Positions 7,604 to 8,371 of a stretch of 11,242 nt of DNA are shown here, one piece after another. The position numbers and the translations under genes were made by a program. The notes beneath the pieces are model-generated. The model was not told the origin of the DNA. It worked only from the letters and a program-made list of their open reading frames with translations, and searched no databases. The stretch lies in the IMG/VR virus record IMGVR_UViG_2693429549_000013. One strand, 5' to 3'. Numbering within the stretch: position 1 is the first letter of the stretch; every line of letters begins with the position of its first letter. This DNA is from a virus (Duplodnaviria; Heunggongvirae; Uroviricota; Caudoviricetes).

Positions 7604-7629
7604 GGCTCGCTTTTGCGGGCCTTTTTTTT
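7604..7629 (+). terminator. rho-independent terminator after the tRNA cluster
   Basis: Stem GGCTCGC / GCGGGCC (one G-U pair), TTTT loop, followed by eight T. Confidence 0.6.
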
Positions 7630-7637
7630 AAATGTCT

Positions 7638-7850
7638 CACAATTCAGACGGTTGACAGTTGTCTGTTTTGCGGGGAGTTTGTTAAAAGAAACTGGCATGG
7701 TGAATCCCCCTGTGCGGAGGGGCAATCAGCGAGTAGGTATATGGGATAATCGCGGATTCAGGTGCTGGTACTGAATTCACCGGGAGGCACCCGGCATCAT
7801 GCAATGGCACATAGCGCCACTCTCCAGCCCTCTCCGGAGGGGCTTTTCTG
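7638..7850 (+). ncRNA. structured module copy 2 (candidate small RNA)
   Basis: Same architecture as copy 1, with TTGACA at 7652-7657 and terminal hairpin at 7826-7844 followed by TTTTCTG. Confidence 0.4.
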
Positions 7851-8038
7851 TGCCGGATACATCACAGTTTCTGGAACCTTAGGTACTACAGTATCAGTCA
7901 GGGTGCTATATTTTCAGATGTGATGAAAGCCTGTCAGCAGGCAGGGCGTATCGGAAATGACCCAGTAGAGAAAACGTTGACTCAGATACCGGTGCTGAGT
8001 TACCGGGAAACCGGCATCACATGACCGCTATCCTTCCA

Positions 8039-8065
8039 GGCCCATCCGCTCCGGTGGGCCTTTTT
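8039..8065 (+). terminator. rho-independent terminator between module copies 2 and 3
   Basis: Stem GGCCCA / TGGGCC with a 10-nt loop, followed by TTTTT. Confidence 0.5.
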
Positions 8066-8104
8066 ACTGCAGAAAACAGGTTCCCCGTTAAATGCTATGT
8101 TGCT

Positions 8105-8337
8105 CACAATTCAGTAAGTTGACAGTTGCCTGTCAGACTGGGCATTTGTTAAAAAAATTTCGCATGGTGAATCCCCCTGAGCGGAGGGGCGACTGGTGAC
8201 GGTATAATCTCTGATTATCAAAACGAGAATGACGCGGGTTTAGTGGCACCGGGCTGAACTCACCGGGAGGCACCCGGCACCATGTGCATGATGATACAGA
8301 TACGCGGCTTTAGCCCCTCTCCGGAGGGGTTTTCTTG
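8105..8337 (+). ncRNA. structured module copy 3 (divergent; candidate small RNA)
   Basis: Retains CACAATTCAG, TTGACA (8119-8124), the CCCCT-gagcgg-AGGGG hairpin (a loop base differs, stem kept), the CCGGG-aggca-CCCGG hairpin and the terminal AGCCCCTC-tccg-GAGGGG hairpin plus T-run. Inter-hairpin spacers differ and include an insertion carrying TATAAT (8203-8208). Confidence 0.4.
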
Positions 8338-8342
8338 TGGGC

Positions 8343-8371
8343 AAAAAAAGCCCGCGCTGGGAGACGCGGGC
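8343..8371 (-). terminator. hairpin with A-run on the + strand (reads as an intrinsic terminator for minus-strand transcription)
   Basis: AAAAAAA then stem GCCCGCG / CGCGGGC with an 8-nt loop. No minus-strand gene lies upstream of it within the window. Confidence 0.35.

Follow-up and report, generated by a model that had tools for sequence, protein, structure and literature searches.

A row of known prophage small-RNA genes, each with its own terminator, between the tRNA genes and nanS-p of a phage late region

Why do several intrinsic terminators stand one behind another between a tRNA cluster and the nanS-p gene of a tailed phage? We investigated this question in a stretch of 11,242 nucleotides (IMG/VR record IMGVR_UViG_2693429549_000013; hereafter, the window), in which a first-pass annotation had described two module copies punctuated by terminators and had proposed that such units accumulate as short RNAs in lysogens, whereas transcription reads through to nanS-p and the lysis genes after induction. 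We found that the stretch from the tRNA genes to nanS-p is a row of known prophage small-RNA genes, each with its own terminator: three STnc100/PasD-type RNA genes on the + strand and one RNA gene on the opposite strand. Positions 7590–8570 are very probably an "sRNA island" in the late region of a lambdoid prophage, where it occupies the site of moron insertion that separates Q from the lysis genes. The layout is ordinary for a moron site downstream of a phage Q antiterminator, and the feature is essentially known. Rather than forming a purpose-built punctuation system, the terminators simply close individual sRNA and tRNA genes.

The late-operon setting comprises the following features:

790–1611, + strand: Q antiterminator gene (Pfam PF03589 Antiterm, E = 6.2e-55)
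1617–1716, + strand: putative PR′ and tR′ (PR′ TTGATT...TAAATT at about 1617–1645, a candidate promoter; tR′ stem 1692–1711 plus U6, −11.2 kcal/mol)
7340–7589, + strand: tRNA cluster (Met/Ile-CAT, Arg-TCG and Arg-TCT by ARAGORN and Rfam tRNA; RefSeq homologues tRNA-Ile and two tRNA-Arg)
7604–7629, + strand: intrinsic terminator of the tRNA cluster (stem plus T8), 15 nt past the last tRNA
8565–10418, + strand: nanS-p-type sialate O-acetylesterase gene (Pfam DUF1737, SASA and DUF6645; RefSeq homologue "SASA family carbohydrate esterase")

With a holin gene (PF04971) downstream on the same strand, the Q-antiterminated operon assumed earlier is borne out, and a TTTCCGGAATCTGTG..TAA(A/T)TT block with a tR′ likewise lies downstream of Q in another array-bearing locus, L161. 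In lambdoid Q antitermination, Q-modified polymerase should read through terminators of this kind. Here, however, the operon is interrupted between Q/PR′ and the array by an IS3-family transposase gene (5210–6028, minus strand) and a truncated second methylase gene, which makes read-through from PR′ less certain than it is in L001 and other intact relatives. The spacer between nanS-p and holin is short, and its sole terminator is on the + strand; no PasA homologue turned up in it when the probe sequence was allowed as many as 3 mismatches.

All three hairpins of the first-pass annotation were recovered by a terminator scan: a + strand stem at 7604–7621 followed by T8 (−13.8 kcal/mol), a + strand stem at 8038–8061 followed by T5, and a minus-strand stem at 8371–8350 followed by T7 (−16.9 kcal/mol). 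GC-rich hairpins directly followed by a U-tract are well above chance in 7590–8570, with 11 terminator-like matches (7 distinct sites) against 1.2 ± 1.1 in shuffles; hairpin energies there span −11.5 to −16.9 kcal/mol. The repeated modules are also genuine, as repeat families in the window (D2, D3, D5 and D6) and Rfam STnc100 matches attest, but they had been parsed wrongly in three ways. The supposed module copy at 7630–8038 holds two units, one canonical (7694–7852) and one divergent (7917–8066). The terminator at 7604–7629, taken for module punctuation, closes the tRNA cluster. Each canonical copy's own 3′ terminator (7826–7852 and 8312–8339) had been missed. As for the second terminator, placed at 8039–8065, the hairpin is there, but it closes the divergent unit. 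The family members in the window are thus:

4257–4416, + strand: STnc100 copy 1 (core 4257–4366, linker, terminator 4388–4416; RF02076 132.4 bits over 4229–4418; covariance model R1 98.3 bits)
7694–7852, + strand: STnc100 copy 2 (core 7694–7803, linker 7804–7825, terminator 7826–7852; RF02076 123.6 bits over 7666–7855; R1 94.6 bits)
7917–8066, + strand: third STnc100/PasD-family unit (core 7917–8023, linker 8024–8037, terminator 8038–8066)
8161–8339, + strand: STnc100 copy 3 (core 8161–8286, linker 8287–8311, terminator 8312–8339; RF02076 161 bits over 8133–8342; R1 97.3 bits)

Copies 1, 2 and 3 all lie far above the gathering threshold of Rfam RF02076 STnc100 (47 bits), which establishes their family membership. 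Copies 1 and 2 are 96% identical, and published STnc_100 qPCR primers match this copy 1/2 type; relative to copy 1, copy 2 carries a G·U in P1 and a 1-nt deletion that weakens its terminator (stem 7826–7844 plus U-tract). The terminator hairpin of copy 3 (stem 8312–8331 plus U-tract) has an energy of −14.8 kcal/mol, within the range of about −11 to −20 kcal/mol at unit ends. An Rfam search of the units at E up to 10 matched no family besides STnc100, and ARAGORN called just six true tRNAs; AsxR, AgvB, riboswitch, ribozyme and tRNA-like identities were rejected on these grounds. The likeness of GGUGAAUCC to cobalamin-riboswitch or T-arm motifs is superficial and without model support.

The middle unit aligns to RF02076 over its full length with 30.1 bits (E = 1.7e-4), which is below threshold, and we therefore file it as a divergent relative at the level of PasD rather than as a curated RF02076 member. 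The independent R1 model, built without this unit, gave it 30.8 bits (E = 3.9e-6), compared with 30.3 bits for PasD2 and a background of at most 9 bits. It was found in 673 of 5426 complete E. coli genomes, and 11 of the 12 listed matches have no annotation beneath them. At least 80% of 7300–8600 is held by 341 complete E. coli genomes, and the canonical–divergent–canonical triple also occurs in L001 and in IMG/VR contigs L144, L171, L191 and L218. A second allele of the triple, about 91% identical over the middle unit, sits in a different prophage context.

The units have the STnc100/PasD architecture: P1 from the 5′ end, P2, P3, P4, a linker and an intrinsic terminator, with covarying helices. 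In the predicted core fold, P1 is the closing helix of P2, P3 and P4, and a pseudoknot joins the segment after P2 to the P3 loop. Across 104 distinct family sequences, 8 of 8 pairs changed on both sides in P1 and likewise in P3, and 91% of cells were paired, compared with 42–51% with slid partners. In an alignment-free test of the pseudoknot, the mean longest complement was 6.34, compared with 4.47 ± 0.10 after permutation (maximum of 200 permutations, 4.87). The pseudoknots in the window are AUCAGC/GCUGGU in copy 2 (read from sequence; its counterpart in L001 was scored in the test), UAUCGG/CCGGUG in the middle unit and CUGGUG/CACCGG in copy 3. All three units and PasD2 align full-length to R1. 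Minimum free energy (MFE) folds of copy 1 and of the middle unit reproduce the family architecture, in the latter case with P1–P4 and the terminator. Conversely, copies 2 and 3 folded alone adopt an alternative in which P2 pairs with the terminator, which counts against our preferred explanation. These folds were the source of the idea of an antiterminator, in which GGAGGGG of the P2 3′ arm would pair with CCCCUC of the 5′ arm of the terminator; we rejected it as a family feature because the terminators of other members are unrelated to P2. A MAFFT alignment of five units had structurally poor 3′ ends and was left out of modelling.

The core is conserved far more than the linker, and GGUGAAUCC...GCGG.GGGGC and CACCGGGAGGCACCCGGCAC are near-invariant, although ascertainment was biased: loci were retrieved with a 15-mer from the core, CCGGGAGGCACCCGG, so that P4 is invariant by construction. 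The scan of viral contigs with this 15-mer was productive, whereas that of genome contigs returned mostly chance matches in high-GC Actinobacteria and about 10 usable enterobacterial loci. It is unlikely, but worth stating, that the near-invariant, pseudoknotted 5′ domain of STnc100/PasD units is more than an inert scaffold and works as an RNA module by itself, binding a protein, RNA polymerase or a ligand or acting in cis in the late transcript. Late-gene expression or a host factor would then be the joint target of the head-to-tail arrays that diverse lambdoid phages keep between Q and their lysis genes, and the variable linkers would supply additional trans-acting sRNA activity.

A rival reading is that the 5′ domain is a structured element of the late transcript, for instance one that interacts with polymerase, Q or a nuclease in the manner of HK022 put, instead of or besides being part of a trans-acting sRNA; this we consider quite improbable. 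On this reading, the element would tune how the Q-dependent late mRNA is elongated, processed or stabilised, and arrays would supply several doses. The compact pseudoknotted fold, its covarying helices and the excess of core over linker conservation would suit such an element, and so would the genomic setting. In every locus checked, 2–4 units stand in sense orientation and are followed by a gene for a holin, a lysozyme or nanS-p. Upstream of the units, three of these loci have a Q gene that could be recognised (PF03589 or PF06530) and the others an ORF without assignment, and the array phages span these two unrelated Q families and four lysis gene families. This conserved setting also counts in favour of the sRNA-gene reading. 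However, most units examined are closed by an intrinsic terminator (unit three of L161 is not), which a put-like antiterminator would suppress, and homologues give discrete short RNAs. Homologues also associate with Hfq in RIL-seq and CRAC and have a target motif complementary to the linker. The family to which the units belong, STnc100, is the only one that matches them in Rfam at E up to 10, and part of the apparent conservation reflects retrieval.

Across 64 distinct upstream sequences, a −10-like TAnnnT peaks at −14 to −9 from GGUG. Its spacing to the RNA 5′ end, which RNA-seq places 4 nt before GGUG in PasD2, is constant in the family. A consensus sigma-70 scan upstream of the + strand units gave no 9-of-12 promoter, and a family-anchored position matrix was therefore used. 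Candidate −10 elements are TTAAAA at 7682–7687 for copy 2 and an A/T-rich block at 8149–8158 for copy 3; in copies 2 and 3, TTAAAA has neither of the key bases (A2 and T6) and stands 3 nt away from the family mode. A conserved TTGACA (7652 and 8119) was rejected as a −35 element because it lies 24 nt from TTAAAA, which is too distant. The middle unit has the following element:

7904–7912, + strand: putative extended −10 (TGCTATATT) of the middle unit, read from sequence, 1 nt off the family-wide −10 position

TGCTATATT is invariant in the second allele, which keeps the putative promoter, fold and terminator of the middle unit; among the differences, a U·G in the pseudoknot becomes U-A, and the terminator is remodelled yet intact. 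Most likely, then, the short RNAs are not products of terminated PR′ transcription but start at promoters belonging to the units: tR′ lies about 6 kb upstream, the family −10 stands at a fixed distance, and an extended −10 precedes the middle unit. Juhala and colleagues are said to have described the moron, in 2000, as a self-contained unit that is inserted between phage genes and brings both a promoter and a terminator. Terminators are present here; on the promoter side, there are the family-wide −10-like signal and the putative extended −10 of the middle unit, and the consensus scan yielded no + strand match.

Alternatively, the units could be without promoters, and RNase P, RNase E or RNase III could release them from tRNA-operon read-through or from a basal PR′ transcript, which we regard as having little chance of being correct. 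The consensus scan would fit this, as would the promoter-like site ahead of the tRNAs (7302–7330), the short U-tracts of the units and the recurrence of the tRNA-then-STnc100 order in E. coli (twice in the window, and in L001 and L134) and in Salmonella diarizonae (L060). Nevertheless, a strong terminator (7-bp GC-rich stem plus U8) separates the tRNAs from copy 2, and PasD2, L161, L143 and L205 keep units without a tRNA immediately upstream. The −10-like signal at its fixed distance throughout the family and the invariant extended −10 of the middle unit also count against this reading. The third idea, already disfavoured, that the repeats and hairpins are non-functional remnants of recombination between prophages, decaying duplicates with fortuitous GC-rich hairpins, can hardly be right: the window is visibly rearranged (a duplicated methylase–tRNA–STnc100 block, the IS3 transposase and an N-terminal fragment of nanS-p) and copy 2 has its G·U and terminator deletion, but the helices covary strongly and the pseudoknot covaries too, two alleles that differ by about 9% both preserve the putative promoter, the fold and the terminator of the middle unit, terminator-like sites exceed the shuffle expectation roughly tenfold, and expression of homologues has been published.

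The opposite strand carries the fourth RNA gene:

8343–8536, − strand: convergent sRNA of the EcOnc08/21/42 type (terminator 8371–8343; seed CCUUGCC; 5′ end probably within 8524–8536)
8543–8571, − strand: promoter-like site of this sRNA (ATGCCA-17-GATAAT; consensus scan; fully conserved in E2348/69), overlapping the nanS-p ribosome-binding site and start codon

The oppositely oriented hairpin reported at 8343–8371 is real and is the terminator of this minus-strand sRNA. The RNA is 96% identical over 246 nt to the EPEC E2348/69 RIL-seq sRNA "E2348C_1409.E2348C_1408.IGR" (NC_011601 1444797–1444978, minus strand), and its seed CCUUGCC, terminator and −10 GATAAT are all kept, identifying it as EcOnc08/21/42-type. 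AsxR and AgvB (RF02703 and RF02702) had no match at gathering threshold in the window and none at E up to 10 in 7590–8570, and HnrS (EcOnc10–12), a 66-nt RNA, is a different sRNA.

What these genes produce can be anticipated from their published relatives. In EDL933, eleven STnc100 copies are transcribed without induction, one of them confirmed by northern blot (PMC5331693); northern blots confirmed PasD1 and PasD2 as RNAs of about 172 nt, and Hfq RIL-seq recovered both (PMC8550237); and EcOnc27 binds Hfq (PMC4104026; PMC12711010). By analogy, the island units may be expressed as short Hfq-associated RNAs. The proposed accumulation of short RNAs in lysogens thus stands insofar as family members accumulate discretely in uninduced cultures (PMC5331693; PMC8550237), but their own promoters, not late-operon terminators, are the most likely source. 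Since the U-tracts behind the three + strand units are short (4–5 U) and the stem of copy 2 has a deletion, the units may terminate and bind Hfq inefficiently, and some of them may be transcribed together.

We propose that the + strand would run from a self-terminated tRNA cluster into three head-to-tail STnc100/PasD genes (canonical, divergent, canonical), each with a sigma-70-type −10 element positioned for a start at the first helix, a pseudoknotted core of about 105–125 nt, a linker and its own intrinsic terminator. The short, single-stranded, unit-specific linker would be the likely seed, a location that we infer for these copies. The fourth gene would converge on them from a promoter overlapping the start of nanS-p, its 3′ end back-to-back with that of copy 3. 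In a lysogen, the units would appear as separate sRNAs that associate with Hfq and act in trans, each on a target set of its own; once the prophage is induced, Q-modified RNA polymerase coming from PR′ would pass every terminator of the island and proceed to nanS-p and the lysis genes. A lysogeny-versus-induction logic is therefore plausible at this locus, as had been suggested, but it is the general moron/StxS logic already published (PMC4104026; PMC7547250) and is not special to the locus.

Compared with known systems, the island is closest to STnc100 itself (RF02076; STnc100 of Salmonella; EcOnc27/sRNA103 of EHEC, 3′ of stx2B), which copies 1–3 match over the full-length model with 124–161 bits and which shares the prophage late-region location and the 3′ terminator. 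The window differs in having three head-to-tail units, one of them under the Rfam threshold; in addition, the start of the Rfam model precedes the likely RNA 5′ end by about 28 nt, and cmscan structure lines lack the pseudoknot. PasD1 and PasD2 (EPEC E2348/69; Pearl Mizrahi 2021), a family related to STnc100 (bioRxiv 10.64898/2026.05.13.724894), share P1 at the 5′ end, GGUGAAUCC, the linker seed, the terminator and a place upstream of a sialate esterase gene, and PasD2 scores with R1 much as the middle unit does. However, PasD lacks the CCGGGAGGCACCCGG hairpin and occurs as one copy per prophage, its copies being distal and non-tandem (Zhu, Shabalina and Storz 2026 preprint), and different targets are expected because the linkers are unrelated.

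At the moron site 3′ of PR′, sRNA genes that converge had already been reported by Tree et al. (2014; PMC4104026). Their pairs (EcOnc27 with AsxR; AgvB) resemble the window in combining a sense STnc100-type RNA with a convergent opposite-strand sRNA; the pair lies downstream of Q and PR′, with moron or tRNA genes on one side and the next late ORF on the other. In the window, the antisense partner is of the 182-nt EcOnc08/21/42 type, not the 51–60-nt AsxR/AgvB anti-sRNA type, and there are three sense units rather than one. StxS/lambda 6S RNA, a short PR′–tR′ transcript (Sy et al. 2020), embodies the logic originally proposed for the window, in which a late-operon terminator gives rise to a short regulatory RNA in the lysogen but lets polymerase pass once Q is made; however, StxS is the PR′ transcript itself, whereas the window units lie far downstream of tR′ and apparently have their own promoters. 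OmrA/OmrB, PrrF1/PrrF2, Qrr and LhrC1–5 are likewise head-to-tail paralogues with a common scaffold and terminator and partly different pairing regions, but they are chromosomal and mostly of short, simple structure, whereas the scaffold here is a phage-borne pseudoknotted domain of about 110 nt. The conserved 5′ domain is unusually elaborate for a simple base-pairing sRNA.

These results bear on annotation first, as RefSeq leaves these units unannotated or overlays them with spurious pseudo-ORFs. STnc100-type RNAs adjoin stx2 and nanS-p, features predictive of HUS include SNPs of the stx2-linked STnc100 copy, and overexpression of EcOnc27 changed espA and fimZ transcript levels. To this family, our analysis adds a sub-threshold, divergent third (middle) member that about 12% of complete E. 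coli genomes carry, a covariation-supported pseudoknot within a conserved 5′ domain, and the head-to-tail arrays of 2–4 units with different linkers that many phages place between Q and the lysis genes. Such tandem arrays contradict the view that copies of these RNA genes are only distal to one another.

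The window is a rearranged late region of a lambdoid Escherichia prophage, with 98.5% identity to its best match among complete genomes. In an unrearranged relative, the E. coli O121 locus L001, Q is followed in order by a methylase, tRNAs, this RNA region, an esterase, and a holin. The region upstream of nanS-p is most likely a string of independent small-RNA genes, comprising a tRNA operon, three STnc100/PasD-type sRNAs (copy 2, a divergent middle unit, and copy 3), and one convergent sRNA.

Features of the window
790-1611: Q antiterminator (PF03589)
about 1617-1716: PR'-like promoter and tR', 3' of Q
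after PR'/tR', before the first tRNA cluster: DNA methylase
between methylase and the following ORF: three-tRNA cluster, first copy
between first tRNA cluster and copy 1: ORF with no Pfam match
4229-4418: STnc100 RNA, copy 1 (Rfam RF02076)
5025-5213: nanS-p N-terminal fragment (DUF1737)
5210-6028, minus strand: IS3-family transposase
between transposase and second tRNA cluster: second methylase, 5'-truncated
7340-7589: tRNA cluster, second copy
7604-7621, plus strand: hairpin stem, then T8
7726-7731 with 7806-7811 (region equivalents): pseudoknot example sites, with loci L123-L242
7826-7844 plus UUUUCUGUG, plus strand: copy 2's own terminator
7917-8023 (core) and 8038-8066 (terminator): middle unit, between two canonical copies
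8038-8061, plus strand: hairpin stem, then T5
8312-8331 plus UUCUUGUG, plus strand: copy 3's own terminator
8371-8350, minus strand: hairpin stem, then T7
about 8536 to 8343, minus strand: sRNA, 96% identical to an E2348/69 RIL-seq sRNA locus
8565-10418: nanS-p (DUF1737, SASA, and DUF6645)
3' of nanS-p, last in gene order: P21-type holin

The methylase–tRNA–STnc100 block occurs twice (2184-4418 and 6382-7855; 100% identity over 300 nt and 94% over 219 nt), with the nanS-p fragment and the minus-strand IS3-family transposase in between. This duplication looks like an IS-associated junction or the product of recombination between two lambdoid late regions. Directly 3' of nanS-p, ahead of the holin ORF or inside its annotated start, lies a strong intrinsic terminator (10501-10529, plus strand; 12-bp stem, −17 kcal/mol, U7), another one for late transcription to read through. 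The short spacer between nanS-p and the holin gene contained no PasA-like sRNA.

The three hairpins that the first-pass annotation had described as punctuating two module copies are present where it placed them, and the segment 7590-8570 holds 11 terminator-like matches at 7 distinct sites (dinucleotide shuffles, 1.2 ± 1.1). However, its list was incomplete and overlooked that each module has its own 3' terminator; in the window, U-tracts are short and the copy 2 terminator is degraded. The module repeats are real, but the space assigned to copy 2 holds two units, not one. The observation was partly confirmed and its interpretation partly supported. P2, one of the core hairpins (CCCCCUGnGCGGAGGGG), resembles the terminators of copies 1–3 (CCCCUCUCCGGAGGGG; 7707-7724 with 7826-7844, and 8174-8191 with 8312-8331), and in the MFE folds of copies 2 and 3 it pairs with the terminator as an alternative structure. 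Such pairing was rejected as a family-wide feature, because the terminators of other members are unrelated.

Full-length matches to the Rfam STnc100 model RF02076 (threshold, 47 bits) were found at 7666-7855 (123.6 bits), 8133-8342 (161 bits), and 4229-4418 (132.4 bits). STnc100 sRNAs are already known as a prophage family of many copies, eleven of them annotated in EDL933, where transcription occurs without induction and one copy was confirmed by northern blot (PMC5331693). The Hfq-bound EcOnc27/sRNA103 is the STnc100 copy 3' of stx2B, and SNPs inside it have been flagged as HUS-predictive (PMC12711010); STnc100 was also detected in STEC outer-membrane vesicles (PMC12370729). PasD1 and PasD2, RIL-seq sRNAs of EPEC E2348/69 validated by northern blot (PasD2, 172 nt; PMC8550237), were tied to STnc100 in a 2026 preprint (Zhu, Shabalina and Storz). 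PasD2 is the 5' neighbour of a sialate esterase gene. RefSeq annotates partial "hypothetical protein" pseudogenes opposite STnc100 cores (L001:8386-8511 and L244:1750-1875, corresponding to about 7685-7810 and 8150-8275 of the window, minus strand), probably miscalls where structured RNA genes lie.

After an IMG/VR scan with a 15-mer from the core, 100 loci were searched with R1, a covariance model built from 34 diverse core-domain sequences that left out the middle unit and PasD2. R1 returned 134 matches, 104 of which were distinct. Among these 104 sequences, both-side changes occurred at 8 of 8 pairs in the closing helix P1 and 8 of 8 in hairpin P3. Paired cells amounted to 91%, versus 42–51% with slid partners, and 0 of 500 shuffles reached the observed values. 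Hairpin P4 (CCGGGAGGCACCCGG) is invariant by ascertainment and thus uninformative. In addition, the segment directly 3' of P2 is complementary to the P3 loop, forming a pseudoknot (AUCAGC/GCUGGU in copy 2, CUGGUG/CACCGG in copy 3, and UAUCGG/CCGGUG in the middle unit; elsewhere in the family, CCAGUC/GACUGG, AAGGUUG/CAACCUU, and AGACUGACAAA/UUUGUCAGUCU). In an alignment-free test of 103 distinct units, in which loops were re-paired with the segments of other units, the longest complement averaged 6.34, versus 4.47 ± 0.10 after permutation (maximum of 200 permutations, 4.87). The 2026 preprint on the STnc100/PasD family does not mention a pseudoknot. A second sequence class, in which P2 CCCCCU..GCGG.GGGG is replaced by GCGGCU.AGCGCACGCGG, was carried by L051 (E. 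coli), L023 (Citrobacter), L143:10175-10294, L126, L131, L136, and L137. R1 scored this class at 57–75 bits, and the Rfam gathering threshold missed it in all three loci scanned with it (L051, L023, and L143:10175-10294).

The middle unit matched the Rfam STnc100 model over its full length, below threshold (30.1 bits, E = 1.7e-4 in a 981-nt search). In an R1 scan of 33.5 kb with filters off, it scored 30.8 bits (E = 3.9e-6) and PasD2 30.3 bits, with the best background at 9 bits, and its MFE fold has the family architecture. On these three results we take it as a divergent family member, and the "second terminator", formerly read as punctuation, is therefore simply its 3' end. The middle unit was found in 673 of 5426 complete E. 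coli genomes, and of the 12 matches listed, 11 had no annotation underneath. Two alleles, about 9% apart, exist. In CREC-629, which carries the second allele, the middle unit is again flanked by two canonical units, here in a prophage of different layout (Q, tRNA-Ile, DUF3927, three units, and iraM). The extended −10 TGCTATATT is invariant between the alleles, a G-to-A change in the P3 loop converts a pseudoknot U·G into a U-A pair, and the second-allele terminator still forms an 8-bp hairpin despite a 4-nt deletion plus a substitution.

A promoter matrix from 64 distinct upstream sequences, anchored on the GGUG of P1, showed a TAnnnT-like peak at −14 to −9 and a weak T/G signal near −37; judging by the peak position, transcription would start within the first nucleotides of P1. 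In published RNA-seq, PasD2 begins 4 nt 5' of GGUG, on the 3' side of TTGACT-17-TTAAAA. Of the units here, the middle one has a good extended −10, and copies 2 and 3 show no more than a weak TTAAAA(A) block with a 3-nt offset. A generic promoter scan was passed by none of copy 2, the middle unit, and copy 3. Own promoters of the units are therefore putative. A conserved block (CTCACAATTCAGnnGGTTGACAGTTGnCTG) that includes TTGACA, perfect or nearly so, lies 5' of copies 1–3 (7652-7657, 8119-8124, and 4216-4221), and TTGACA was rejected as the −35 of TTAAAA because the 24-nt spacing is too long. Linkers between P1 and the terminator are 35–56% identical between units; copies 2 and 3 are 68% identical in their cores and 90% in their terminators. 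The PasD linker is complementary to the RIL-seq target motif (PMC8550237), which, together with the differing linkers, suggests different targets for the three units.

Copy 3 and the minus-strand sRNA have their 3' ends back-to-back. The E2348/69 counterpart of the latter, E2348C_1409.E2348C_1408.IGR, is a 182-nt RIL-seq sRNA forming chimeras with the cfa and dppA 5' UTRs (PMC8550237), and EcOnc08, EcOnc21, and EcOnc42 are its homologues. The window retains the seed CCUUGCC, the terminator, and an ATGCCA-17-GATAAT promoter. This promoter shares sequence with the ribosome-binding site and start codon of nanS-p, and any late transcript that reads through would carry a nanS-p 5' UTR to which the sRNA is antisense. 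The convergent-pair layout at the moron site 3' of PR' was reported for eight Sakai prophages (Tree et al. 2014, PMC4104026). The 3' half of the sRNA (8343-8431) gave a sub-threshold match to Rfam OmrA-B (25.2 bits, threshold 40, E = 0.025) that includes a GGUAUU block close to the 5' seed of the model and is probably due to chance or driven by the terminator. Within the same region, between copy 3 and nanS-p, a plus-strand terminator-like hairpin (8440-8455; CTGCGCAACTGCGCGG then TCTTTTT) would make a sixth plus-strand one on the late-transcription path.

At least 80% of 7300-8600 is carried by 341 complete E. coli genomes, and the canonical–divergent–canonical triple recurs in L001 and the IMG/VR contigs L144, L171, L191, and L218. 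Head-to-tail arrays of two to four units were recognised in other phage contigs at Rfam's own threshold (four in L134, four plus one in L205, and three each in L161 and L145). In all checked loci, the array is in sense and 5' of a holin, lysozyme, or nanS-p gene (3' genes: P21 holin, LydA holin, holin_8, lysozyme, and GH108). A recognisable Q was upstream in three checked loci, from the unrelated families PF03589 and PF06530; upstream of the array, L205, L128, and L207 have an ORF without a Pfam match, L134 has a methylase, and L201 lacks a same-strand ORF. In L161, the array begins about 60 nt after tR'. The preprint describes PasA/PasD copies as distal, not tandem, whereas STnc100-branch arrays are tandem and so extend the published picture modestly. 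Within or beside STnc100 arrays, in the spacer 5' of lysis genes, two viral contigs carry Rfam isrI, a Salmonella Hfq-binding RNA (L205:5220-5316 and L159:8139-8235; Q upstream confirmed only in L159), so this spacer collects several unrelated sRNA genes.

We propose that these small-RNA genes sit as morons within a Q-dependent late operon. During lysogeny, each unit would be transcribed from its own promoter and stopped at its own terminator, whereas upon induction Q-modified polymerase from PR' would read through. Lambdoid Q antitermination is the established basis for such read-through. StxS provides a precedent (PMC7547250). A caveat in the window is the IS element that separates PR' from the array. 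The lysogeny/induction switch suggested earlier was thus right in spirit but neither locus-specific nor new; the terminators to which it traced the short RNAs were the wrong ones, as was the promoter that it implied. In essence this is a known feature (Rfam STnc100; Tree 2014; Pearl Mizrahi 2021; Zhu, Shabalina and Storz 2026), to which the present analysis makes three small additions: one sub-threshold member, tandem arrays, and the pseudoknot. For a base-pairing sRNA family, the pseudoknotted 5' domain is strikingly elaborate and almost invariant. A function of this domain beyond a scaffold or 5'-end protection is unlikely on present evidence, because most examined units self-terminate and homologues act as Hfq-associated sRNAs.
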